From Candidatus Enterousia sp. (lineage in GTDB: Bacteria > Pseudomonadota > Alphaproteobacteria > Rs-D84), in contig JAZQTD010000030.1 of NCBI GenBank assembly GCA_045630455.1, positions 50,422 to 114,421 of the forward strand: a DNA stretch of 64,000 nucleotides, given 5' to 3'. Positions 25,724 through 42,246 of the stretch are shown in pieces. The notes under the pieces are model-generated. The model searched no databases and was not told where the DNA came from. It saw nothing but the letters and a program-made list of their open reading frames with translations. The stretch's first letter is position 1; each line of letters opens with the position of its first letter. The translations under genes and the position numbers were made by a program.

Positions 25724-25800
25724 GTGCCCATGGCTCAATCGGATAGAGCAATTGCCTTCTAAGCAATAGGTTGCAGGTTCGAGTCCTGCTGGGCACGCCA
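25724..25800 (+). tRNA. island-encoded tRNA-Arg (anticodon UCU)
   Basis: GTGCCCA-TG-GCTC-AATCGGATA-GAGC-A-ATTGC-CTTCTAA-GCAAT-AGGTT-GCAGG-TTCGAGT-CCTGC-TGGGCAC-G-CCA. All stems pair perfectly. A possible own promoter is TTGAAT(25621)-16-TATAAT(25643). Confidence 0.92.
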
Positions 25801-26765: not shown

Positions 26766-27977
26766 TTATCCTGTTATCATGCTTGCAACATTGTTTGCGG
26801 TGCGACGTGCGGCAATACTTGATGCATGTGCGTATATTTCAGTTGTGGTGATTTTTGTGTGTCCCAATACGTCTTTTAATATTCGTATATCTTCGCCCAT
26901 GCTGGTGGCCAGTGTTGCAAAAGAATGGCGCAGGTCGTGTATACGCATCCGTGGTAATTTGGCACGATCCAATGCCCACCAGAACGCTTTACGCAAATCT
27001 GTCAATGGGCGCGTATGGTCGATTGGTGAATGAAATACATACTGTTTGCTTTTACAAATTCTCAATGCCTGTTTTATAACTTCTATTGCCGGATCGCCCA
27101 GCGGTACATTAAATGCATCTGTTTTGCGTTTATTTAAACGTAGATACCCGTTTTCTAGGTCTAACTCGTCCAGTTCCAGGCTTGTTATTTCCCCACTGCG
27201 ACAGCCTGTCAGTGCAAGTGTTTTAATAGCCAGGATGGTTTGCGGTGCATATTTCCCAGCGCAAAATGCCTCGTCCAGTGCAGTAAACAAACGTTTATAA
27301 CCATCAATGTCCAGAATCGTATGGTTCATCTTTGGGGATTTTGCCTTTTGAACCAAATGGCATGGATTTGAATTTATTGCGCGATAATTGTATTTTTCAC
27401 ACCAATTTAGAAAGGTCGATAATAACCGCATAACATGCAATCCAACTGCAATAGTTTTTGTGTTTTTGATTTTATCGTACATATCCTGGATTGTGCGCAG
27501 ATCAATATCTGCAATGTATTTATCGCCAAGATATGGGATTATATACAGGCGCATCAATATTTCGTTTGATCGATAGGTATTTCCCCGATTGTTTTCGCGA
27601 CAATGTTTTTCCATAAATATTGGGGTTAGTTCACGGACTTGTTTACGTCGTGCTGCGGCCATTTCGTTTTGCTTTATGCGTATGCGCTGTTCTGATTGCG
27701 GGTCCAGACCGTTGGCGATATCTTGTTTGGTTTGTATCGCACGTGCGCGAATCTCATTTAAGCTAAATTCCGTCAGCGTGCCCAATCTTATGTGCTTTTG
27801 TTGATATGAACCGCGAACGCGATATCCCAAATAGAACACTTTGCGTCCAGATGCGGCCGAATACCGGCATTGTAGCCCTGGCAGTGCTGCATCTGTTATT
27901 TGCAAATCAATGTCGGATTTCAGTTTGTTCAGAAATCCTGTTGTTAAAACCAACTTTTGACATTTAAGTGTCCGCAT
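26766..27977 (-). CDS. int: tyrosine-type site-specific integrase (P4-like, DUF4102-type arm-binding N-terminus)
   Basis: About 403 aa from ATG 27977. The N-terminus reads LTDAALPGLQCRYSAASGRKVFYLGYRVRG...IRLG. The catalytic region reads LTGCRSGEI ... HDLRHSFATL ... LGHTKITTTEIYAH (R-H-R-Y). Confidence 0.9.
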   Translation of the reverse strand: MRTLKCQKLVLTTGFLNKLKSDIDLQITDAALPGLQCRYSAASGRKVFYLGYRVRGSYQQKHIRLGTLTEFSLNEIRARAIQTKQDIANGLDPQSEQRIRIKQNEMAAARRKQVRELTPIFMEKHCRENNRGNTYRSNEILMRLYIIPYLGDKYIADIDLRTIQDMYDKIKNTKTIAVGLHVMRLLSTFLNWCEKYNYRAINSNPCHLVQKAKSPKMNHTILDIDGYKRLFTALDEAFCAGKYAPQTILAIKTLALTGCRSGEITSLELDELDLENGYLRLNKRKTDAFNVPLGDPAIEVIKQALRICKSKQYVFHSPIDHTRPLTDLRKAFWWALDRAKLPRMRIHDLRHSFATLATSMGEDIRILKDVLGHTKITTTEIYAHASSIAARRTANNVASMITG

Positions 27978-28306
27978 ATGTTGTCCTTTGTTATACACAA
28001 CATTGATAATAAAAGTGCACAAGTCCAGTGAATAAGATTATCAAGGTTCTTGTCTAACAATATGCATTCGTGCAGTTCCTTGTACACGGATTCCGTGTTG
28101 CCAAAGACCATCCATTCGTGTTGGTGCTGGTACCTGGCCCGGGATAATGCAAATGAATTTTTTATCCAGCTGAACTTCATTATCGATGTAGCAATCTGCT
28201 GAATATGTTCTTTGCTGTGCGTGCGTGGGTTGCGTGCAAACGGTTTTGTCAGATTGATGTCAAGGTACCGAACATCCAGTTTAAGATTTTTAAAGTCGAT
28301 TTTCAT
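27944..28306 (-). pseudogene. ParB-like nuclease N-terminal domain remnant
   Basis: MKIDFKNLKLDVRYLDINLTKPFARNPRTHSKEHIQQIATSI matches the ParB-N motif (..NPRTHS..QI..IA.SI). The remaining sequence has no similarity and overlaps the int start, so this is probably a truncated ParB-N/methylase gene. Confidence 0.4.
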
Positions 28307-30109: not shown

Positions 30110-31372
30110 TTAACGGAATGACGTATTTTTATTCGGTTTAAACCTCCACGTCATTTCTGTTTTTCTTTTATTACATACCGAAAGATCATGACTTTCCCAT
30201 TTTTTTACTGTTGACCATACCTTATCAAAGAAAAAATCTTGATGTGCTCTTACGGCAAAAAAATCATTTTCTTCTTTGGAACTAGGCACAATATAAACCA
30301 TGGACAAGTTTCCAAAGGTTAAAAAAGCCCATAATTTTGGCAACTGTTGTTTAGATTTTGCTCGTTTCACAAAAACAATTAACTCTGGATATTCACATAG
30401 TTTATATTTTTTCGTTCGTATTTTAACTACTGGCAAAGTTCCCCAAAATTCATCTTTAGTAATCCAGTTAATGGTTTCGGTAAAATTGCCACAAAATAAT
30501 TCTGCATTTATAACGCTTAGAGCATATTTACATAATGTTTTATAAATATTTTGTGGTGTTATTGATAACCCTTTACACACAGGAATAGTTAACAAATCTT
30601 GTAAATGGTTAACAGGGCGTTTTATTGAAATTTTCAACTTTTTATCTAAATCCTTATCATCACGATACATTCTCACTTCTGAGTTAGACATTGTTGGTGT
30701 TCCTGTTTTCCCACACACATTAAAAAAGATACGACTTGGCAATATCCAGTTACCGAAATCCTGTTCTATACCATTTCCAAACTTCTCATTACATGTATCA
30801 CATTCTTCGTTTAGTATTATTTTTTTATTATTTAAAAACTCAGAAAAAGCATGAGCTTTATGCTTAAAACTCACTTCCGGCATAGATTTACCACAAAATC
30901 TGCATCTTCTTTTTTGTCGAATTCTTTCGCCTACTTTTATTTCGTTATCAGCGTAAAAAGAATAATAATTATAATTATCTAAACATTTCATTGGAAACGG
31001 CATTTTTATACTTACACCATTAAGCCGAGCTAAAATTTTGCGAATTTTTATTTCTCGCTTTTGTGGTATTTTACTTATATCAGAACAAACAAAGATATAT
31101 TCATTTATACTACATTCTTCTAAGAATGTCTTCACTGTCCACAGTTGTGGACAATTTGAAATATAATGATTGAAAAAAAACTCAAAATCTTGTTTTTGTT
31201 TCTCAGAATAGCGAAAAATTGGACATTTTAATTTATTGTTTTTTACTTGTAGCCCAAAAAGTTTATATAATTTTAATATAAATTCATACGTTTCTTTATT
31301 TGGTGCTACAGATAAACTGACTAATTTTTGGGTGGACATAAAGCATATAGATATATTGTTTTTACCATTCAT
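30110..31372 (-). CDS. HNH-like (HNH_5-type zinc-finger nuclease motif) protein, otherwise uncharacterised
   Basis: 420 aa, very AT-rich. The central CRFCGKSMPEVSFKHKAHAFSEFL...NEECDTCNEKFGNGIEQDFGNW matches the C..C...H....C..CN..fG..lE layout. The N- and C-terminal regions are unrecognised. Confidence 0.55.
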   Translation of the reverse strand: MNGKNNISICFMSTQKLVSLSVAPNKETYEFILKLYKLFGLQVKNNKLKCPIFRYSEKQKQDFEFFFNHYISNCPQLWTVKTFLEECSINEYIFVCSDISKIPQKREIKIRKILARLNGVSIKMPFPMKCLDNYNYYSFYADNEIKVGERIRQKRRCRFCGKSMPEVSFKHKAHAFSEFLNNKKIILNEECDTCNEKFGNGIEQDFGNWILPSRIFFNVCGKTGTPTMSNSEVRMYRDDKDLDKKLKISIKRPVNHLQDLLTIPVCKGLSITPQNIYKTLCKYALSVINAELFCGNFTETINWITKDEFWGTLPVVKIRTKKYKLCEYPELIVFVKRAKSKQQLPKLWAFLTFGNLSMVYIVPSSKEENDFFAVRAHQDFFFDKVWSTVKKWESHDLSVCNKRKTEMTWRFKPNKNTSFR

Positions 31373-32207: not shown

Positions 32208-32340
32208 GTTTTGCCTCTTGTTTTTTCAACATAACAATGCCAACAAAAAAAGGAATAGCCAGGGAAATAAAAATAATTTGTATTTACTTGAATAAAACGA
32301 AATATACGGCATATAGAACAACAAACCAAAGGAGTTTATT

Positions 32341-32937
32341 GTGATATATGGTTATATTCGGGTTTCTACCGACAAACAGGACTGCGAAAATCAAAAATTA
32401 GGCATTGAATCCAAAGCCAGCGCATTAGGGCTTTGTATTGATAAATACATTGAAGATGCAGGCATTTCCGGCACCAAAGAACCAGAGCAACGCGCATTAG
32501 GCGGTGTTTTGCGACATTTAAATCCGGGCGACGTTATAATATGTAGTGAACTTTCGCGTCTGGGGCGAAAAATGTTCATGATTATGCGAATATTGGAGCA
32601 TTGTATGAAAATTGGGGCGCGTCTTTATACCGTCAAAGATGGCTATGAGTTGGGTGACACTATTCAATCTAAGGTTTTAGCATTTGCGTTTGGGCTATCA
32701 GCTGAGATTGAACGTAATCTTATTGCCCAGCGCACCAAAGAAGCATTGGCGGCATTACAATTACGCGGTGTGAAACTGGGCCGTCCAAATGGCCAAAAGA
32801 ATACTTACCATATCATTGACGGTCATGAAAACTTGATTTTAGACATGTATTCAGCAGGAGTTTCTAAACGAAAAATTGCCAGAACTATCCGGGTCAGCCC
32901 GCCCACAATTTCGCGATTTCTTGAAAGCAGAAAATGA
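32341..32937 (+). CDS. serine recombinase (resolvase/invertase family)
   Basis: 198 aa with a GTG start after AAGGAG. YGYIRVSTDKQ contains the catalytic Ser. Also SELSRLGR, a GLSAEIERNLI E-helix, and the C-terminal HTH SKRKIARTIRVSPPTISRFL. Confidence 0.9.
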   Translation: MIYGYIRVSTDKQDCENQKLGIESKASALGLCIDKYIEDAGISGTKEPEQRALGGVLRHLNPGDVIICSELSRLGRKMFMIMRILEHCMKIGARLYTVKDGYELGDTIQSKVLAFAFGLSAEIERNLIAQRTKEALAALQLRGVKLGRPNGQKNTYHIIDGHENLILDMYSAGVSKRKIARTIRVSPPTISRFLESRK

Positions 32938-33032
32938 CCCTTTAATTGTTCCAAAATTGTAAATAAAAAAACCGCGAAAATCAACCGATTTCAGCAATTG
33001 TTTTTGTGTAACAACAATGTCGTGGTTTAACT

Positions 33033-33713
33033 GTGGCAAAATCTTCGCAAGATTCTTCCAACAAACAAATCGTTTCAAAACGTCGTATTGCCGATCATGG
33101 GGAAGTATTCACGGCCCCACGGGAAGTTAATGCCATGCTGGACTTGGTAAAACAAGAAACCCAGCGCATTGACAGTCGTTTCTTGGAACCTGCCTGTGGC
33201 AAGGGCGCATTCCTGACCGAAATTTTGCGCAGAAAACTGGAAATTGTAAATTCACGCTATCATAAAAGCCAGATTGAATATGAACGATACATGGCATTGG
33301 CCGTGTCCAGCATATATGGCATTGATATTTTGCCCGACAATGTGGCGGATTGCCGTTCTTTGTTATTGGGTATCTGTATCGATAATTATGCCAGCGCATG
33401 TAAATTGAAATGCGAATGTATTCCAACTGATTTTATTGAAACGCTGCGCTTTATTTTAGGCAAAAACATTGTGCTGGGGGATGCATTAACCCTGAAACAG
33501 GTTGACGGTTCAAACGCCCCGATTGTATTCAGTGAATGGTCGTTGGTCATGGGTGACATGTTCAAGCGCCGTGATTTTTATTTCTATTCCTTGGTTGACA
33601 GCGAAATGGGCGGCGAATATTGCCGTTCTGATATGGGTGGCGGCACATGGATGCCCGTGCCTGTGCGTGAATTTCCCCTGACACATTACAAAAGGTTAAA
33701 ATATGCAGAATAA
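33033..33713 (+). CDS. adenine-methyltransferase-like protein lacking the catalytic (D/N)PP(Y/F) motif
   Basis: 226 aa. Motif X-like GEVFTAPREVNAMLDL, SAM motif I LEPACGKGAFL, then IYGIDI. I find no NPPY-type motif IV. GTG start. Confidence 0.55.
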   Translation: MAKSSQDSSNKQIVSKRRIADHGEVFTAPREVNAMLDLVKQETQRIDSRFLEPACGKGAFLTEILRRKLEIVNSRYHKSQIEYERYMALAVSSIYGIDILPDNVADCRSLLLGICIDNYASACKLKCECIPTDFIETLRFILGKNIVLGDALTLKQVDGSNAPIVFSEWSLVMGDMFKRRDFYFYSLVDSEMGGEYCRSDMGGGTWMPVPVREFPLTHYKRLKYAE

Positions 33714-35271
33714 CACATATAACCCAGACGTGTTAAGTTGCCTGGCAAATTTAAGTAATGACGAAGTATTTACACCACCTGCATTGGCAAATCAAATGCT
33801 GGACATGTTGCCAGCGGAATTGTGGTCAAATCCCGATGCAAGGTTCCTGGACCCGTGTTGCAAAAGTGGTGTATTCCTGCGTGAAATCGCGAAACGCCTT
33901 ATTGTTGGATTAGAACATCAAATTCCAGATTTACAGGAACGTCTGAACCACATTTATAAAAACCAGTTATTCGGCATTGCCATCACGGAATTAACATCGT
34001 TGCTGGCGCGACGTTCGGTATATTGTTCCAAGAACGCAAACAGCCAATATTCTATTTGCACCGATTTTAACACCAACAGTGGCAACATCATATTTGAACG
34101 GGTTCAACACACATGGGAAAACGGTCGCTGTAAATTTTGTGGTGCCGTACAAACAGAATATGACCGTGACACCAGCCTGGAAACACACGCATATCAATTC
34201 ATTCACGCAGACGAGGTATTTAATATGAAATTTGACGTAATTATTGGCAATCCACCTTACCAAATGAATGTTGGCAACGATGGCGGCAATAAGGCTAAAG
34301 CCAAAGCAATTTACCATAAATTTGTTGAACAGGCAGAAAAATTACAACCCAAATATTTATGCATGATTATCCAGAGCCGTTGGATGACCCGAACTGCAGA
34401 AGGAGTGCCTGAAGAATGGACAGACAGAATGCTTAATTGCAATCATATAAAAACGATGCATGACTTTGTAGACGCTAACATCTGCTTTCCTGGCGTAGAT
34501 ATAAAGGGGGGCGTTTGTTATTTTCTGTACGAAAAAGATTATGTTGGCAAATGTTCATATTTTTTACACAAAGATTCGAATTCTGCGCCTCTGCTAAACA
34601 AGGATTTCCTGAACGCTAAGGGGATTGGTATAGTTATAAGAGATTTGAATGCACTTTCAATATTATCAAAAATTGAGGGTGTTGAAGGTGCTTATTTAGA
34701 ACAAGAAAGTACGAATTTCTCTGGTCTAGTAAGCCCAAAGGATTTTTTTACCAACAAACAACAACTAACATCCAGTTGGGACCAATATGATGATGTTAAG
34801 TCAAGGGCTTCAGACATAAAATATTATTTAAACAAATCCATGCACAAGAAAGAGTTTGGCTGGATTAACGAAACCCAGATTCCAAAAAATAGGCAAGCCA
34901 TTAAACTGAATAAAGTATATATCACATCCGCTGCTGGCTCTGGAACAGATAGTCAGGTTTTAGGAAGACCTTTTTATGGGGAACCCAACAGCGTTTGTTC
35001 GCAAACATATTTAGTAATTGGTTATGACCCAGATAAACATAATTTCACTCAGACACAATGCGAAAACATAATATCATATATTAAAACCCGTTTTTTCCGA
35101 TATTTGGTGAGCATAAAAAAGAAAACCCAAAATGGCCCCAGGGGTGTTTATCAGTTTGTTCCCATGCAGGATTTTAGCGAACCGTGGGACGATGCCAAGT
35201 TATACAAGAAATATGGCCTGACGGCGGACGAAATCGCCTTTATTGAATCAATGGTTCGACCAATGGAGTAA
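33703..35271 (+). CDS. N6-adenine DNA methyltransferase (Eco57I/gamma-class) with C-terminal putative target-recognition region
   Basis: 522 aa. Reads EVFTPPALANQMLDML, LDPCCKSGVFL (motif I), LFGIAI, FDVIIGNPPYQ (motif IV). Confidence 0.85.
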   Translation: MQNNTYNPDVLSCLANLSNDEVFTPPALANQMLDMLPAELWSNPDARFLDPCCKSGVFLREIAKRLIVGLEHQIPDLQERLNHIYKNQLFGIAITELTSLLARRSVYCSKNANSQYSICTDFNTNSGNIIFERVQHTWENGRCKFCGAVQTEYDRDTSLETHAYQFIHADEVFNMKFDVIIGNPPYQMNVGNDGGNKAKAKAIYHKFVEQAEKLQPKYLCMIIQSRWMTRTAEGVPEEWTDRMLNCNHIKTMHDFVDANICFPGVDIKGGVCYFLYEKDYVGKCSYFLHKDSNSAPLLNKDFLNAKGIGIVIRDLNALSILSKIEGVEGAYLEQESTNFSGLVSPKDFFTNKQQLTSSWDQYDDVKSRASDIKYYLNKSMHKKEFGWINETQIPKNRQAIKLNKVYITSAAGSGTDSQVLGRPFYGEPNSVCSQTYLVIGYDPDKHNFTQTQCENIISYIKTRFFRYLVSIKKKTQNGPRGVYQFVPMQDFSEPWDDAKLYKKYGLTADEIAFIESMVRPME

Positions 35272-35274
35272 GTT

Positions 35275-37806
35275 ATGGCAAAGAAAGTTATGTTTCCAGC
35301 ACGTCCTGATGCCAACCCAACTATTTATGCGTATTCGGACAAAAATCCACAATATGATGGCATGTTAAAGGTGGGCTACACTATAAAGTCCGCTGCAACC
35401 CGTGTGGCCGAACAATACCCCATACTAAAACCTGGCGATATTCCATATGTCATCCATGTGGACGAACCTGCCATTCGCAAGGACGGCTCGGTATTCACAG
35501 ACAAAGACGTCCATCGCATATTGCGAAACCGTGGCATTATTCAACTGCACGACAAAGACGGCAAGTTAACCGAATGGTTCCAATGCGACGTCAAAGACGT
35601 TATGGCGGCAATCACATCATTGCGCACAGGCACCGACCTGGAAACCCAGCGCACAGAAACATTTGCCATGCGCCCCGAACAGGCCGAAGCCGTTGAAAAA
35701 ACAATCGCTTATTTCAATGCTTGGCACCATGAAAACCCTGGTAAAACTCCGCACTTTTTGTGGAATGCCAAAATGCGTTTTGGTAAAACATTCGCCACAT
35801 ATCAACTGGCCAAACAAATGGGGTGGTCCAAGATATTGGTGCTGACATTCAAACCTGCGGTGCATCAGGCATGGGAAGAAGACCTGAACAGCCATTGTGA
35901 CTTTGACGGGTGGCAGTTTATTTCCAAAAAAGACAAAACAACCGAACAATTCATGGATGCGGTCAAACACCTGGACAGCAATCGCCCCATTGTGTGCTTT
36001 GGTTCATTCCAGGATTATCTGGGCAAAAATGATGCAGGCGGCATCAAGGCACAGAACGAATGGGTGCATGGCACAAACTGGGATTGTGTCGTATTTGACG
36101 AGTATCATTATGGCGCATGGCGTGAAAATGCCAAAGACCTGTTTGAAAACGAATCCAAAGCCGAACAAAAAAATGCCGCTGGCGAGGCTATGGACTATTT
36201 TGACGAGTCTAACATGCCAATCACCACAGGGCATTATTTATACCTGTCTGGCACCCCGTTCCGCGCCATAAACAGCGGCGAATTCATAGAAGAGCAAATT
36301 TATAACTGGACATATTCGGATGAACAGCGCGAAAAAGAAGAGTGGAAAGGTCCAAACAATCCGTATGCGGCTTTGCCACGCATGGTAATGATGACATATC
36401 AGTTGCCCGACACCATTCGCAATATCGCATTGGGTGGCGAATTTAACGAATTCAACCTTAATGAATTCTTTGCCGCCGATGGCGATGGGGAAAATGCCAA
36501 GTTCAAATATGAAAACGAAGTTCAAAAATGGCTGGACTTAATTCGTGGCCAGTTGGCAGAAACCACCCTGGACAGCCTGAAAATGGGCGCCAAGAAACCG
36601 CCAATGCCATTTGCAGACACACGCCTGTTGGGCATCCTGTCACATACAATATGGTTCCTGCCATCAATTGCGGCATGCAATGCCATGGCAAACCTGCTGA
36701 AACGCCGTCAAAACACATTTTACCATGATTATCGGGTAATTGTGGCCGCAGGCACGTCCGCTGGCGTTGGCATAAAAGCCCTGGCACCTGTGCAAGAGAA
36801 AATGGCCAACCCATTGGAAACAAAAACAATCACCTTGTCATGCGGCAAACTGATGACGGGGGTATCGGTTAAACCATGGTCTGGCATCTTTATGCTGTGC
36901 AACCTTAAAAGCCCAGAATCATATTTCCAGGCGGCATTCCGTGTTCAAACCCCATGGACAATCAAAAATCCAGACGGAGAACACCCAAATGCCACCCAAA
37001 TCATGAAAGAAGAGTGTTATATCTTTGACTTTGCGCCTGACCGTGCGTTGCGCCAAATCACAGATTATAGTTGCCGACTGAATGTAAATGAATCCGACCC
37101 AGAAAAGAAAGTTGCTGAATTTATTAACTTTTTGCCTGTATTGGCCTATGACGGCAGCGCCATGCGCCAAGTTAATGCCAGCGAAATTCTGGACATGGCA
37201 ATGAGTGGAACCAGCGCAACCCTGTTGGCACGCAGATGGGAAAGCGCATTGCTGGTAAATGTGGACAATGCGACCCTGTTGCGCCTTATGAACAACAAAG
37301 CGGCCATGGACGCACTTATGAGCATCGAGGGATTCCGCAGTTTGAATCAGGACATTGAAACGGTTATTAACAAGTCAAACGCCGTGAAAGAAAAGAAAGC
37401 AGCCGCCAATGAACGGGAATTGACCCCAAAAGAAAAGAAAGAAATGTCGGAAGAAGAAAAAGAATTCAAATCCGCACGCAAACGCATCCAGGAAAAACTG
37501 ATTAAGTTCGCAACCCGTGTGCCGATTTTCATGTATTTAACCGACTATCGTGAACGCAGTTTGAAAGACGTCATAACCCAATTGGAACCTGGGCTGTTTA
37601 AAAAGGTGACGGGGCTGGACGTAAAAGATTTTGAATTGCTGGTAAGTTTGGGTGTGTTCAACGATGCGCTTATGAACGATGCGGTGTATAAATTCAAACG
37701 CTATGAAGACGCCAGTTTGGAATATGCAGGCATTAACAAACACGCAGGTGAAAGCGTTGGATTATTCGACACAGTCCTAAGCCACGAAGATTACGAGATG
37801 ATGTAA
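35275..37806 (+). CDS. GIY-YIG/T5orf172-domain plus SF2 (ResIII/SNF2-like) helicase fusion, putative restriction subunit
   Basis: 843 aa. The N-terminal roughly 115 aa read IYAYSD...MLKVGYT...RVAEQ...DKDVHRIL...LTEWF (T5orf172/MUG113-like GIY-YIG fold). Helicase motif I AKMRFGKT, motif II VVFDEYHYG, motif III LYLSGTPF. The start is 4 nt after the MTase stop. Confidence 0.8.
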   Translation: MAKKVMFPARPDANPTIYAYSDKNPQYDGMLKVGYTIKSAATRVAEQYPILKPGDIPYVIHVDEPAIRKDGSVFTDKDVHRILRNRGIIQLHDKDGKLTEWFQCDVKDVMAAITSLRTGTDLETQRTETFAMRPEQAEAVEKTIAYFNAWHHENPGKTPHFLWNAKMRFGKTFATYQLAKQMGWSKILVLTFKPAVHQAWEEDLNSHCDFDGWQFISKKDKTTEQFMDAVKHLDSNRPIVCFGSFQDYLGKNDAGGIKAQNEWVHGTNWDCVVFDEYHYGAWRENAKDLFENESKAEQKNAAGEAMDYFDESNMPITTGHYLYLSGTPFRAINSGEFIEEQIYNWTYSDEQREKEEWKGPNNPYAALPRMVMMTYQLPDTIRNIALGGEFNEFNLNEFFAADGDGENAKFKYENEVQKWLDLIRGQLAETTLDSLKMGAKKPPMPFADTRLLGILSHTIWFLPSIAACNAMANLLKRRQNTFYHDYRVIVAAGTSAGVGIKALAPVQEKMANPLETKTITLSCGKLMTGVSVKPWSGIFMLCNLKSPESYFQAAFRVQTPWTIKNPDGEHPNATQIMKEECYIFDFAPDRALRQITDYSCRLNVNESDPEKKVAEFINFLPVLAYDGSAMRQVNASEILDMAMSGTSATLLARRWESALLVNVDNATLLRLMNNKAAMDALMSIEGFRSLNQDIETVINKSNAVKEKKAAANERELTPKEKKEMSEEEKEFKSARKRIQEKLIKFATRVPIFMYLTDYRERSLKDVITQLEPGLFKKVTGLDVKDFELLVSLGVFNDALMNDAVYKFKRYEDASLEYAGINKHAGESVGLFDTVLSHEDYEMM

Positions 37807-37889
37807 AAAACAGCATTTAATCTATGGATTTTTAAGGATTTCTGTACTAGGATTTACTTGGTAAAAAGTCACCAAGGAATGTTATTGTT

Positions 37890-38573
37890 ATGGAATTTGA
37901 CAATCGCGATATAGAAATCCCGAATGCCATCATATCGATGGAGAATTTTTATGCACAAAATTTGGGACCAAAACGTAAAAAAATTTGTGAAATTCTTAGA
38001 ACCTTTAGCGATGATGCCGTCAACATATATTTAGCAGGCGTTGCTGCATTAGAAATTCCTAATTTTCCGGCCAAGCAATCTATTATTGGACATTGTTTCA
38101 GGGAGTTAATAAATGCCCTTGTAAGATCTGACGAAAACGAATTAAAGCAACAAGTGTTCACGGCTTTAAAATCTGCTGAATTTATAAGAAACAGTGAAAG
38201 CAAAAACGAACGCATTGAGCATGTAGTTAACGAAATATGGGAAAAGATAAAACCCTTAAATAATGAGACTTCAAAATTAAAAACAATGTTTATAGATAAA
38301 AATCCAAAACAAAAAAAAGATTTACTATTTTCTGATATAGAAACACGAAAAAAAACACAAAAAAATATAGATGATGTTATTCAGCAGGTTTTGACTGCGA
38401 AAGGGAATCTTGATAAAAGAAGACACTTTAATAAAAAATTTTCTATAATACCCAATGAACAGTTGATTGAAAACGTAACCATATTAGAAAATTATATTTT
38501 ACAATTAGAAGATCCAACATATATAAAACAAAAAGGGATGTTAGATGAAATCTTGGAAACAGCCAACTCCTGA
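37890..38573 (+). CDS. hypothetical protein (227 aa, predicted alpha-helical)
   Basis: AT-rich ORF 84 nt downstream of the helicase gene. No recognisable catalytic motif. Its 3' end overlaps the next ORF by 29 nt. Confidence 0.55.
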   Translation: MEFDNRDIEIPNAIISMENFYAQNLGPKRKKICEILRTFSDDAVNIYLAGVAALEIPNFPAKQSIIGHCFRELINALVRSDENELKQQVFTALKSAEFIRNSESKNERIEHVVNEIWEKIKPLNNETSKLKTMFIDKNPKQKKDLLFSDIETRKKTQKNIDDVIQQVLTAKGNLDKRRHFNKKFSIIPNEQLIENVTILENYILQLEDPTYIKQKGMLDEILETANS

Positions 38574-41427
38574 ACAGGTTTGTTTTGTTACAAATAGCAT
38601 GAAAGGGAACCTTAAAAGTTACTTCCTTTCTAGACTAGAAAATCCATTGTGGTTTCAGCCTTTGTATGACGAACATCTATTAGATTTCTCAAAAAAGTAT
38701 GCTGATGAGATACAAGATTATATATATTCATGGGATGCTTTACCATACTTATCAAGAATGGCGTCCATAATTCCAGAACAAGTTTTTGCACTCATAGAAC
38801 CTTTAGTAAATGCAATAAAAGACGCTTCAATTGAATCACCTTGGTTGGTTAAAGTAATCGTATTATCAATAGCTAAAGAAATGCCAGATACGCAATTTAA
38901 AGCCATTATGACGGCGTTCACATCATATATTTATAAAACACCATTTATCGATTTGTTTGATTTTACAACATTAAAATCTAATTTAATTAGATTTAAGAGA
39001 CTTGATCCTGCACAAGCTTTGAATTTGACAGAAGCGTTATTATCGTTGCAAATAAAATATGTTGGGGAATATGGTTCTACAGAAGTTGTGTCTAAATATG
39101 GAGACAATGATTATTATAGATACCAAGAGATGTTGAAAATTTTTCAAGAAATCTACAACAAACAAAAATTAAAACTATTTTCTGTTTTGGTTAAAATCTT
39201 TGATGATACAATTTATAAAACTTGCACACAAGAAGAACGAGAGAAATACGATAATTCTGTGTATATGGATCGTCCTGCTATAGAGAATAGCGAACAAAAT
39301 CATAATTTTTCTGGTCCAGAACACTTTGCAATAGATGCGATGCGCGACATTGCATCGTCCATAATATCCACAAATAAAAAAGACGAGGCCAATAAAGTTT
39401 TTGATCTGCTACAAAATTCTAAATCGCCCATCCTTGTGAGATTATACTTGTTTTTATTATCCGTGACTGATGTTTGTGACAAAAAAATCTTATCAGAAAG
39501 CTTGACGAATTATGAATTTTTTGATGGCCTAAATTATCACCATGAATACTTCCATTTGTTGAATAAAAAATTCAAAAAATTATCCAAAACAGCTCAATCT
39601 GTTATTCTCAAATATATTGAGGATGGCCCAACTGGTGATTATTACAAAAATAGTGAAGATAGCACTTCTGCAAAAGAACGTCAAAATCGTTGGAAGTTTA
39701 AACACTTGATACCTATATTAGGCTCTTTAACAAAAAAACAAAAGGAACGATTTAAAGATATATTGTTTGATGATACTGGGAACCCTATCATGCCAGGAGA
39801 CCACCCAGACTTTCTAACATGGATGAGTGGTTTTATAACTGTAAGACATGAATCTCCTTTAAAATCAGAAGAAATTCAAAACTCAAGCGTTGCAAAAATA
39901 ATTAAAACAATGCAAGAATGGCAACCTGCGCCTGATAATTGGCACGGCAAGCCGGACAGAGAAGGTTTTGCTGAAGCTATCAAACAGGATGTCTTAAATA
40001 CCCCCAAAAAGTACATATCTTCGCTCGGTAAATTAACAACTATAACTGAACCAACATACATTAGAGCCATTTTGCGCGGCATTATAGAATCTGGCTCAAA
40101 AACATCTGATGACTGGGTAAAAATTATTGATTTTATTGATTGGGTTGCAAAACAAAATGAAACATTTGATGATAGAAAAAGTTTTCATGACGGTGACCAA
40201 GATTGGTATTGGACAAAACAAGAAGTTGCTTCGTTGTTAAATTCTGCTTTTGTAAAAGATTCTAGTATAGATAAAACAGACGAACAATTGATTGAAAAAT
40301 CTTTCGATATTCTATATTCCTTGATAAATTCTGAAGACAAATTACTTGAAAATAAAAAAGATGAGGTTTGTTCTGGAGATAATTACATAAATAGAGCTAT
40401 TAACTCTGTTCATGGCCAAGCTTTGGATTCGTTATTAACTTTTGCTCTATGGTTAAAGAACAACAGCAAGTCAACAAATCAGGTAGAAGCATTATTAACC
40501 GATATTGTACAACGCCCCAAATATATTGACTCCCTTGCTATAATTGCTCGTGCTCTACCGTGGGTACATTTGTCTATGCCGGAATTTACTGAAAAAAATA
40601 TCGATATTCTTTTCCCGGAATCAAAAGAATACCAGTATATTTTAGATGTAACATGGCCAACTTTTGTTCTGTATACACGTGCATATGAAGACATGTTCTA
40701 TCTTATGAAAGAGAAATTTTGTTATGTGTTAAAAAAACATTTGTATATTGATCAAGATAAAAAACGTACAGATAAACAAATTGCCCGTCACCTAATGCTC
40801 TACTATGCTTGGGGATTGTATGACTTAGATTCTGAAATTTTATCTCTTCTTTTTGACGATATGGCAAATAAAGAAGAAATGGTGTCTTTTGTAAATCTTA
40901 TCGGTTTTATGCTATATCAAGTTAAATCGGATAACGATAATGTTTCAGATGAAATGATCCAACGTTTTATAGATTTTTGGGAATGGTTTATTGAGCATAT
41001 AAAGGGCAAAGAATCCGATTACAAAGATGTATTAAAGGAATTTGAGCGATGGTATCAATGCGGAAAATTCACAAAAGGAAACTGGGGTTTAAAACATTTG
41101 CATAGATTGGTAGCAGATGATAATCTGAAAATATCCATGTCTAATTTTATGTTAGAAGAGACTTTGGTCAGCGATTTATCAGAGAATCCCAGACTGGTAT
41201 TTGATATTGTTTCAAGGTTGGCTTTTAGAGGTGCAAGATTCGATTCTTTCAGAAGGAATGGGCTTATAGAACAAACTCTTGAATATATAAAAAATCATGA
41301 TTTTCCGGAAGACGAGACATTAAAAAGCGAAAAAGATGACTTTATAAGTAAATTATTACAAAATGCCGATTCTTGGGAATTAGACGATGCGTCTGCAAGA
41401 TTTGAAAAATATAGAGAAGATAGATAA
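38545..41427 (+). CDS. large hypothetical protein (960 aa, predicted helical-repeat)
   Basis: Uninterrupted 2.9-kb ORF in very AT-rich DNA. I see no Walker A/B, HNH, PD-(D/E)xK or other motif. Confidence 0.65.
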   Translation: MKSWKQPTPEQVCFVTNSMKGNLKSYFLSRLENPLWFQPLYDEHLLDFSKKYADEIQDYIYSWDALPYLSRMASIIPEQVFALIEPLVNAIKDASIESPWLVKVIVLSIAKEMPDTQFKAIMTAFTSYIYKTPFIDLFDFTTLKSNLIRFKRLDPAQALNLTEALLSLQIKYVGEYGSTEVVSKYGDNDYYRYQEMLKIFQEIYNKQKLKLFSVLVKIFDDTIYKTCTQEEREKYDNSVYMDRPAIENSEQNHNFSGPEHFAIDAMRDIASSIISTNKKDEANKVFDLLQNSKSPILVRLYLFLLSVTDVCDKKILSESLTNYEFFDGLNYHHEYFHLLNKKFKKLSKTAQSVILKYIEDGPTGDYYKNSEDSTSAKERQNRWKFKHLIPILGSLTKKQKERFKDILFDDTGNPIMPGDHPDFLTWMSGFITVRHESPLKSEEIQNSSVAKIIKTMQEWQPAPDNWHGKPDREGFAEAIKQDVLNTPKKYISSLGKLTTITEPTYIRAILRGIIESGSKTSDDWVKIIDFIDWVAKQNETFDDRKSFHDGDQDWYWTKQEVASLLNSAFVKDSSIDKTDEQLIEKSFDILYSLINSEDKLLENKKDEVCSGDNYINRAINSVHGQALDSLLTFALWLKNNSKSTNQVEALLTDIVQRPKYIDSLAIIARALPWVHLSMPEFTEKNIDILFPESKEYQYILDVTWPTFVLYTRAYEDMFYLMKEKFCYVLKKHLYIDQDKKRTDKQIARHLMLYYAWGLYDLDSEILSLLFDDMANKEEMVSFVNLIGFMLYQVKSDNDNVSDEMIQRFIDFWEWFIEHIKGKESDYKDVLKEFERWYQCGKFTKGNWGLKHLHRLVADDNLKISMSNFMLEETLVSDLSENPRLVFDIVSRLAFRGARFDSFRRNGLIEQTLEYIKNHDFPEDETLKSEKDDFISKLLQNADSWELDDASARFEKYREDR

Positions 41428-42246
41428 TTATGCTTTTTTAGCTGATGCTGGTGTTAAACCTTCTGTTGCGAGTGGTTTGATATGTAATATATGATCGCCG
41501 TGTTGTTTAAGAACGAAACAGACATTTAGTAATGAATTCAAAACAGTTTGCAAAACCGCCGCCCTAGCATATTTACTTTCATCTTCTTGAAAAGATTGAC
41601 TTGTTGCAAAAAATCTTCTTACCAAATATGGCGAAAAGTGTTTATAGCCACAAAACAGTTGATAATTTTCGTAGTTTATATCTTTGTTTTCATAATATGC
41701 AATCAACTCTGGTGTGTCTTGAATTGACTCTAAAACAAGCTTGAAATAATCTTCTGATATGTTTTGTATCGTATCTCCGTACCACTTTTTGTTGTAACTG
41801 TTACGATCAAGCCTATTTGGATTCTTAAGGCTTTTACGAAGGAATCTATCACAATTATTTTGATTCAGTAATTCTAAAACCCTATCTTTACGATCTGGGT
41901 GTACACGTAACATTTCTATTTGTTCAACATATCCAAAATCTATAAAATCTTTACCCCTGGTATTAAAATGCTTGTTTAACCATAGCAGTTGTATTTCAGC
42001 TTCTAAAATTTGACACGTAATGGAACTAGCCACAAAAACTCTGTTATTTTGCAAAGCATCATAAACCTCTGCCGACAGAGAAATAATAGCCCCCACCAAA
42101 CTATGTAGCCCCATAAGAGCCTTGTCTTTTGTAGCCTGAGGGTGAAATGATTCCATGGTGCGAACCATCATCCTTAATTTTTTCATTAAGATGTCTACGT
42201 CATCATTCTTTAACGGATGTGGCAATGGATATTCTTTGTTTAACAT
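41428..42246 (-). CDS. hypothetical protein, DUF5677/AbiV-like (tentative)
   Basis: 272 aa. The segment SSITCQILEAEIQLLWLNKHFNTRGKDFIDFGYVEQIEMLR resembles the R.l.E..i.l.yl core I associate with DUF5677/AbiV-type helical proteins. This is from recollection only. It converges on the 960-aa ORF, and the two stop codons abut. Confidence 0.4.
   Translation of the reverse strand: MLNKEYPLPHPLKNDDVDILMKKLRMMVRTMESFHPQATKDKALMGLHSLVGAIISLSAEVYDALQNNRVFVASSITCQILEAEIQLLWLNKHFNTRGKDFIDFGYVEQIEMLRVHPDRKDRVLELLNQNNCDRFLRKSLKNPNRLDRNSYNKKWYGDTIQNISEDYFKLVLESIQDTPELIAYYENKDINYENYQLFCGYKHFSPYLVRRFFATSQSFQEDESKYARAAVLQTVLNSLLNVCFVLKQHGDHILHIKPLATEGLTPASAKKA

Follow-up and report, generated by a model that had tools for sequence, protein, structure and literature searches.

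A probable DrdVI-family restriction-modification locus on a tRNA-Arg island of Candidatus Enterousia, and exchange of its target recognition domain

Introduction

The DrdVI family of REBASE, whose members are 'Type IIG-like' split restriction-modification (RM) systems, includes DrdVI from Deinococcus wulumuqiensis NEB 479 and MaeIV from Methanococcus aeolicus. Methylation specificities have been assigned experimentally to both, GCAGCC for DrdVI and GCACY for MaeIV (PMC6430315, PMC10113651). In each case co-expressed M1 and M2 proteins methylate one adenine of a short asymmetric site; the complement of GCAGCC contains no adenine, and that of GCACY contains none outside the degenerate position. 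A 2016 paper described DrdVI as a GIY-YIG 'fused translocase and REase' (restriction endonuclease) and mentioned M1.DrdVI and M2.DrdVI (PMC4996451). Here we analyze three adjacent genes in a 64,000-nucleotide stretch of DNA from Candidatus Enterousia sp. (contig JAZQTD010000030.1, positions 50,422 to 114,421), referred to below as the window. They encode a 226-aa methyltransferase (MTase)-like protein (M1), a 522-aa N6-adenine MTase (M2) and an 843-aa nuclease-motor protein (R). We consider it probable that they constitute an intact DrdVI-family member which operates by the mechanism proposed in the Discussion.

The family's architecture and its two methylation motifs were already known. What is new here is the swapping of the target recognition domain (TRD) of M2 next to a constant M1, the apparent complementarity of the MTase motifs in M1 and M2, a hint from a weak model that the motor of R is Snf2-like, and the finding that a serine recombinase accompanies the trio in only a few loci.

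Results

Three genes with the DrdVI architecture

The pDrdVI plasmid record contains adjacent, co-directional genes for a 212-aa 'DNA methyltransferase', a 539-aa MTase with an Eco57I domain, and an 851-aa DEAD/DEAH helicase. M1 from the window is 44% identical to the first of these (WP_114673821, E=3e-44), M2 is 44% identical to the second over its full length (WP_114673822, E=3e-153), and R, in a tblastn search of PLSDB, is 55% identical to the third over 99% of its length (WP_114673823). Every feature of the family that could be checked was found, namely a half-MTase M1 lacking motif IV, an Eco57I-type M2, a nuclease-translocase R and the gene order M1-M2-R. DrdVI and MaeIV share with the window the same three proteins, order, orientation and tight packing. 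As in DrdVI, M1 has no NPPY, M2 has a lysine in motif I along with NPPY, and R joins a GIY-YIG-type N-terminus to a helicase. The window differs from DrdVI in the central TRD of M2, and its recognition sequence is presumably different as well. The settings also differ: the window trio lies on a chromosomal tRNA-Arg island with a serine recombinase gene upstream, whereas pDrdVI is a 15.5-kb plasmid with a recombinase downstream. A megablast search with positions 32300-37900 found nothing similar in E. coli genomes or in PLSDB plasmids.

An earlier reading of this DNA, made from the letters and a list of open reading frames (ORFs) and called here the sequence-only reading, had presented the module as unusual, and had named the presence of the exact architecture in REBASE as a characterized RM type as grounds for withdrawing that view. 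This is essentially the situation, since the same three-gene architecture is already catalogued as M1.DrdVI, M2.DrdVI and DrdVI, and the module is not an undescribed one. Its identification as an RM-type module fared better, and the logic of nuclease, translocase and gamma-class N6-adenine MTase with TRD is supported by our results.

The ORF coordinates and the junction letters agree with the tight co-directional layout that had been described. M1 and M2 overlap by 11 nt (ATGCAGAATAA), and the TAA stop codon of M2 is separated from the ATG start codon of R by the 3 nt GTT. The motifs quoted previously are present in the translations (LEPACGKGAFL in the 226-aa protein; LDPCCKSGVFL and IIGNPPYQ in the 522-aa protein; AKMRFGKT, DEYH and SGTP in the 843-aa protein), and the 226-aa protein indeed contains no (D/N)PP(Y/F). 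With full-length ORFs, tight coupling and every invariant catalytic residue in place, the window trio is predicted to be an intact copy. Ratios of nonsynonymous to synonymous substitution (dN/dS) were 0.03-0.04 for R, 0.10-0.21 for M1 and 0.125 for the M2 N-terminus, and all three genes are thus under purifying selection.

Relationship to other RM systems

Type ISP enzymes such as LlaGI and LlaBIII combine a nuclease, a superfamily 2 (SF2) motor, a gamma-class N6-adenine MTase and a single TRD, and they methylate one strand of an asymmetric site, as do the characterized DrdVI-family members. The trio likewise has an SF2 motor, a gamma-class MTase and a C-terminal TRD, the motif order in M2 being X-I-IV followed by a variable region, and the fold of an M1 model weakly matches the MTase part of LlaBIII and LlaGI. 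In contrast, a Type ISP enzyme is one polypeptide with an Mrr-like PD-(D/E)xK nuclease, whereas the window has three ORFs, a T5orf172/GIY-YIG domain and an additional MTase paralogue without motif IV. No sequence similarity was detectable between the trio and solved Type ISP chains. Type III systems, exemplified by EcoP15I, resemble the trio in that Mod and Res are encoded by separate genes, Res is an ATP-dependent SF2 subunit, and asymmetric sites are methylated on one strand. They differ in having a beta-class Mod with an internal TRD, identical protomers and a C-terminal PD-(D/E)xK nuclease in Res, whereas in the window M2 is gamma-class, the second protomer is truncated and the nuclease is N-terminal. 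According to a report on EcoP15I, one protomer of the Mod2 dimer recognizes the site and the other methylates (PMC4490356), and this division of work may, by analogy, be a precedent for M1 and M2. The likeness of parts to Type ISP and Type III enzymes, which had been noted before, therefore stands, with the activities distributed here among three chains, but the trio falls outside both types: it is not a single polypeptide and has neither a PD-(D/E)xK nuclease nor a beta-class Mod.

A strict Type IIG enzyme shares the single TRD, but not the separation of R from M that is seen in the window. The DnmA(YeeA)-YeeB-YeeC and OspHL35III systems are operons of an MTase with TRD, an SF2 translocase and a T5orf172/GIY-YIG nuclease found in defense islands (PMC9973331, PMC4752239). 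Their MTase is a large MmeI-family protein, helicase and T5orf172 domain are separate, and there is no M1-like partner, whereas the window has a 522-aa Eco57I-type MTase, a motor with the nuclease fused at its N-terminus, and an M1 that is an obligatory part of the gene set.

A conserved three-gene unit

We collected 80 loci from species-representative genomes, and gene order was counted in the 57 whose sequence extends 3 kb or more upstream of the helicase gene. M1, M2 and R were found in that order and on the same strand in all 57. Because every one of these loci carries all three genes, the trio is an obligatory unit and M1 is not a pseudogene; conserved order together with purifying selection on all three genes argues that their association is more than chance. 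Protein-database searches with R and with M1 each returned at least 8000 candidates. R is 66-73% identical across many phyla (Chlorobiota, Bacteroidota, Actinobacteria, Anaerolineae, Planctomycetota, Bacillota and others), and M1 forms a family of its own, comprising 363 clusters at 50% identity (E<=1e-30), almost all of 200-290 aa.

The PADLOC search proposed by the sequence-only reading found no system model for the trio. Both R and M2 matched the REBASE-derived REase_MTase_IIG model PDLC03626 (1359 positions), R over positions 149-801 and M2 over 863-1357, and single-chain relatives should therefore exist. Such a fused form is carried on Enterococcus plasmids, where a 1456-aa protein consists of an N-terminal nuclease domain with the pattern Y.Y/KIG.T/R..EQ/H/EWF, a motor and an Eco57I module. 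The fused gene is preceded by a separate gene for a 248-aa M1-like protein that overlaps it by 8 nt and whose product is 40% identical to M1 from the window.

In roughly 25 of the 57 relatives, the gap between M2 and R holds an insert of 0.3-4.4 kb. These include loci L011, L013, L017, L030, L031, L037, L042, L048, L050, L051, L057, L058, L060, L064, L065, L069, L071, L076, L077 and L081. The 27 longest co-directional ORFs in 22 of these gaps encode, among others, DUF1016/YhcG PDDEXK proteins, RhuM, AlbA_2 with HATPase_c_4, Bro-N, transposases, and AAA_15/AAA_21 proteins with DUF4276, which we take to be a PARIS-like pair. Genes for DUF1016 and RhuM proteins have been reported within Type I RM operons (PMC9881135). 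An R protein 69% identical to that of the window is encoded on a 3.3-kb contig (L045) of a Candidatus Heimdallarchaeota metagenome-assembled genome (MAG), an Asgard archaeon bin, reflecting either horizontal transfer or a binning error.

Apparent complementarity of the MTase motifs in M1 and M2

Pfam searches, also proposed by the sequence-only reading, identified an Eco57I domain in the 522-aa protein, T5orf172 and ResIII domains in the 843-aa protein, and only a sub-threshold MmeI_Mtase match, at residues 45-105, in the 226-aa protein. The first ~95 residues of M1 are 32% identical to the N-terminus of M2. Among 43 diverse M1 sequences, motif I (E52-P-A-C-G56-x-G58), the motif II residue D98 and the motif III residue G149 are invariant, and D150 and A151 of motif III are at least 90% conserved; in the window protein FSEWS occupies the position of NPPY. 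The AlphaFold2 model of M1 (predicted local distance difference test score, pLDDT, 76) matches only the N-terminal half of CamA, BrxX, LlaBIII and MmeI. The Foldseek search that had been suggested for this protein aligned it with only ~100 residues of gamma-MTases at E of about 0.03, and found no structural match for its small beta-rich C-terminal part. The view of the 226-aa protein as a conserved MTase paralogue without motif IV is upheld, and M1 is very probably non-catalytic.

M2 shows the reverse pattern. Among 45 relatives NPPY is invariant, as is a lysine (K54) at the position of the first motif I glycine, and alanine (A93) occupies the position of the motif II acidic residue in at least 90%. 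A weak, motif-level alignment with the solved structure of PglX (8c45) pairs LDPACGSG with LdPvsKsG, placing K54 at the first glycine, and FGLDID with fgiaite, placing A93 at the aspartate. The fused Enterococcus enzyme has more degenerate motifs I and II (ADLYVKSGMY and YACAPS), retains NPPY, and has a canonical M1 partner. Since the M1 and M2 motifs look complementary and M1 and M2 are cloned together by New England Biolabs (NEB), we infer that M1 is an obligatory, non-catalytic subunit which binds S-adenosylmethionine (AdoMet). Gamma-MTases such as M.TaqI, however, tolerate a residue other than glycine at the first glycine position of motif I, so M2 may bind AdoMet by itself. That M1 and M2 amount to a true 'split' MTase, with cofactor binding and catalysis on two paralogous polypeptides, is a more tentative proposal, which their motifs suggest and which we hold to be possible rather than probable. 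Methylation would then require M1, and M1 might double as an AdoMet-dependent license linking the M module with the GIY-YIG/Snf2-like R protein.

Between motifs II and III, M2 contains an insert with four cysteines, of which C108 and C119 are at least 90% conserved and C143 and C146 are invariant. The insert is a probable zinc ribbon, and we know of no description of it in Eco57I-type MTases.

Exchange of the M2 target recognition domain

Three metagenomic copies of one island (L001-L003) provide a natural comparison of M2 alleles. Their R proteins are identical, and M1 and the recombinase are 99-100% identical. The flanking DNA of L001 is ~95-100% identical to that of L002 and L003, with 100% identity over most 100-nt windows. 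The M2 proteins, in contrast, are only 61-65% identical to each other. Divergence between L001 and L002/L003 is confined to ~900 bp, extending from just after NPPYQ to ~50-70 codons before the stop codon, where DNA identity falls to ~28-69%. The same pattern is seen when the window is compared with locus L009: identity is 31-56% across 34261-35116 and 84-100% on both sides. Furthermore, in one metagenome, contig ends at 34216-34253 and at 35271 continue into unlike sequence, and one of them reads 'PYQLSDGG…', resembling the start of the L001-allele TRD. From these alignments, the TRD of M2 appears to be replaced by recombination between conserved flanks.

These comparisons bear on the role of M1, for which the sequence-only reading had offered 'specificity factor' as one option. 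M1 remains 99-100% identical in islands whose M2 TRDs share only about 30-50% of their DNA sequence; since the TRD region is swapped while M1 stays constant, M1 is not the specificity factor.

In a Polaribacter MAG (L054:3944-6981), one M1 gene is followed by two M2 genes in tandem and then by one R gene. The two M2 products are nearly identical over their first ~190 aa and have different TRDs, and the 40-aa Cys-rich insert is missing from the second. Such an arrangement may provide dual specificity or a TRD donor for recombination.

The nuclease-motor protein

The fusion of a GIY-YIG-fold N-terminus to an SF2 motor, proposed previously, is borne out by the T5orf172 and ResIII matches, and the assignment of the nuclease domain to the T5orf172/GIY-YIG clan, rather than to Mrr or PD-(D/E)xK nucleases, agrees with the lack of any PD-(D/E)xK match in R. 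A candidate catalytic set consisting of Y18/Y20 (in IYAY), K32-x-G34-x-T36, R43, H80 and E100 is invariant in 28 of 28 relatives. On the domain match and this Tyr/Tyr-Arg-His-Glu set, the N-terminal domain is assigned to the T5orf172 branch of the GIY-YIG superfamily. Motor motifs I, II, III and VI are invariant in the alignment of relatives. In the AlphaFold2 model of R, the T5orf172 domain is the best-predicted part (pLDDT 75-92), whereas the model as a whole has a pLDDT of 60 and a predicted template modeling (TM) score of 0.41. Foldseek matches to the motor were led by the Snf2-family double-stranded DNA translocases ZorD, Snf2, ISWI and Sulfolobus SWI2/SNF2 (probability 1.0, low TM score), with SauUSI ranked lower. 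The helical C-terminal region of ~250 aa gave no family match. Sequence searches with R and M2, and profile searches with M1, M2 and R, retrieved nothing significant among solved structures.

Island context and the upstream recombinase

The trio is cargo on an integrative defense island in a gut alphaproteobacterium-like genome, located next to a tRNA-Arg(TCT) gene and a P4-type integrase gene (Table 1). The serine recombinase gene lies 95 nt upstream of the M1 start (32937 to 33033), as had been noted. A recombinase accompanies the trio in the window and in L001-L004, L006 and L008, and any recombinase is found nearby in 5 of the 57 representative loci; as a core component of the system it was rejected on that count. 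In L008, a Candidatus Enterousia MAG, homology to the window runs from ~32282 to ~37806 and the flanks are unrelated, and in L004 the trio, in unrelated surroundings, is preceded by a recombinase with 45% identity. We read the recombinase as a mobility-linked passenger and not as a device for phase variation.

At the left edge of this cassette, contigs from three gut/bovine metagenome runs carry 1277 extra bases between 32270 and 32283, which looks like a cargo-exchange junction of the island. The HNH_5 gene just upstream of the recombinase lies in a block of 32.5% GC and is likely another defense cargo gene. Downstream of R, an overlapping gene pair, whose products had no match in Pfam, NCBIfam or PADLOC, and a convergent gene for a DUF5677 protein occupy a block of 31-33% GC.

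Table 1. Features of the locus and its surroundings (window positions)
Feature	Position	Strand	Description	Support
tRNA-Arg(TCT)	25724-25800		tRNA gene adjoining the island
Integrase	26766-28022		P4-type
HNH_5 protein	30110-31372	-	420 aa, central HNH_5 domain
Serine recombinase	32341-32937	+	Mpi-family-like invertase/resolvase, 198 aa	Pfam Resolvase 5.5e-31; NCBIfam Mpi 247 bits (cutoff 272)
M1	33033-33713	+	GTG start, 226 aa; motif X, I (EPACGKG), II (GID), III (GDAL), FSEWS at NPPY position, short beta-rich C-terminal part with invariant KRRDF	ORF list
M2	33703-35271	+	522 aa; Eco57I-family gamma-class N6-adenine MTase, the system's only TRD	ORF list; Pfam Eco57I 8.9e-35
M2 constant catalytic core, aa 1-186	33703-34260	+	motif X, I DPCCKSG, II GIAIT, four-Cys insert, IV NPPY (34249-34260)
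M2 four-Cys insert, aa 108-146	34024-34140	+	probable zinc ribbon
M2 hypervariable central region, aa ~187-471	34261-35116	+	presumed TRD; swapped between near-identical loci
M2 constant C-terminal ~50-70 aa	35117-35271	+	…VPMQDF…LYKKYGLT..EI.FIE…RPME	alignments
R	35275-37806	+	843 aa; N-terminal T5orf172/GIY-YIG-clan domain, SF2 ATPase motor, helical C-terminal region	ORF list
R T5orf172 domain, aa 18-114	35326-35616	+		Pfam T5orf172 1e-7, 32.8 bits (cutoff 20)
R SF2 motor core, aa ~130-600	35662-37074	+	Walker A GKT 170-172, DEYH 275-278, SGTP 325-328, motif VI QAAFRVQ 552-558	ResIII 9.3e-7
Overlapping pair	37890-41427		227 aa and 960 aa
DUF5677 protein	41428-42246		convergent

Discussion

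We propose that M2, together with M1 as an obligatory, non-catalytic AdoMet-binding paralogue, would recognize an asymmetric 5-6 bp site through its central TRD and methylate one strand. At unmethylated sites the M1/M2 module would recruit or activate R, whose Snf2-like SF2 motor would then move along double-stranded DNA at the expense of ATP. Cutting would be performed by the single-site GIY-YIG/T5orf172 nuclease of R, probably with a need for two converging or cooperating enzymes, and new specificities would arise when homologous recombination between the conserved flanks of M2 replaces the TRD. Two cooperating enzymes are favored because, when only one strand is methylated, replication yields one daughter site without modification, and because each GIY-YIG domain has only one active site. 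Type III and Type ISP systems deal with one-strand methylation by requiring two sites or converging motors.

Several points weigh against this proposal. Restriction, ATP dependence, translocation and the requirement for collision are properties that we infer for the DrdVI family, and the searchable literature contains no published cleavage biochemistry or phage-restriction phenotype for any of its members. The Snf2-like nature of the motor is only a hint from a poor model. In a scan of the locus for promoters and terminators, signal counts were no higher than in shuffled sequence. Finally, the logically analogous DnmA-YeeB-YeeC system of B. subtilis shows no restriction or anti-phage phenotype (PMC9973331).

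That last observation, made on a locus with an MmeI-type MTase, a helicase and a T5orf172 protein, also lends some substance to the idea that the window holds a decayed or domesticated relic, in which the methylase alone would remain active, as an orphan or epigenetic MTase, and R would have lost the ability to restrict. Decayed DrdVI-like loci do exist, for example in Bibersteinia trehalosi (PMC4996451). We nonetheless consider a relic unlikely here: the three ORFs are full length and tightly coupled, all invariant catalytic residues are retained, the dN/dS of R is the lowest of the set, and the module resides on a mobile defense island beside other defense-like genes.

An alternative in which the system excludes phage without cleavage, guided by methylation as in BREX (bacteriophage exclusion), would make R a remodeler or translocase and its T5orf172 domain a DNA-binding module. 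Some descriptions of T5orf172 domains treat them as DNA-binding and not as catalytic (PMC9973331), the fold matches of the motor are to Snf2 remodelers, and no DrdVI cleavage site has been published. Invariance across phyla of the Tyr/Arg/His/Glu set typical of GIY-YIG catalysis, and the use of the term REase for DrdVI by the NEB authors, make this alternative very improbable.

Phase variation, in which the adjacent Mpi-like invertase would flip or shuffle the specificity of M2, might be suspected from a recombinase that lies 95 nt from M1 and travels with the trio in several lineages, from the enrichment of Eco57I-type MTases and Mpi-family invertases at programmed inversions (PMC9881135), and from the differing M2 TRDs of otherwise identical islands. 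Our repeat search agrees with the earlier failure to see convincing inverted repeats: only short, chance-level matches were found around or within the module. The 64-kb window contains no silent M2 or TRD copies, and no inversion joints were seen in metagenome contigs, which would drop rare variants. With these results, with a recombinase in only 5 of 57 loci, and with TRD boundaries located where conserved coding sequence ends, the pattern that ordinary homologous recombination should give, we attach very little weight to a phase-variable system. The proposal of an RM type not described before, in which a Type ISP/III-like system is split in a new way and equipped with a GIY-YIG nuclease, can draw on the absence of any Pfam, NCBIfam or PADLOC model naming the trio, of any solved structure similar in sequence to R or M2 and, in our literature search, of any mechanistic paper on the DrdVI family, but it is highly unlikely to be correct, because the architecture is named DrdVI or MaeIV in REBASE and in three NEB papers with motifs assigned, and public genomes already contain thousands of annotated homologues, by which its novelty is refuted.

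As an intact member of the DrdVI family, the window locus is one more copy of a catalogued RM system and adds little by itself. The family, on the other hand, occurs in hundreds of species and most bacterial phyla, always with an MTase paralogue that lacks motif IV and with a TRD that is swapped freely, and the specificity of its enzymes could be reprogrammable by TRD exchange. A biochemical study of the DrdVI family would close a gap among the Type ISP, Type III and Type IIG systems. If the tentative split-MTase arrangement of M1 and M2 is true, the family would represent a mechanistically distinct class of ATP-dependent restriction enzyme.

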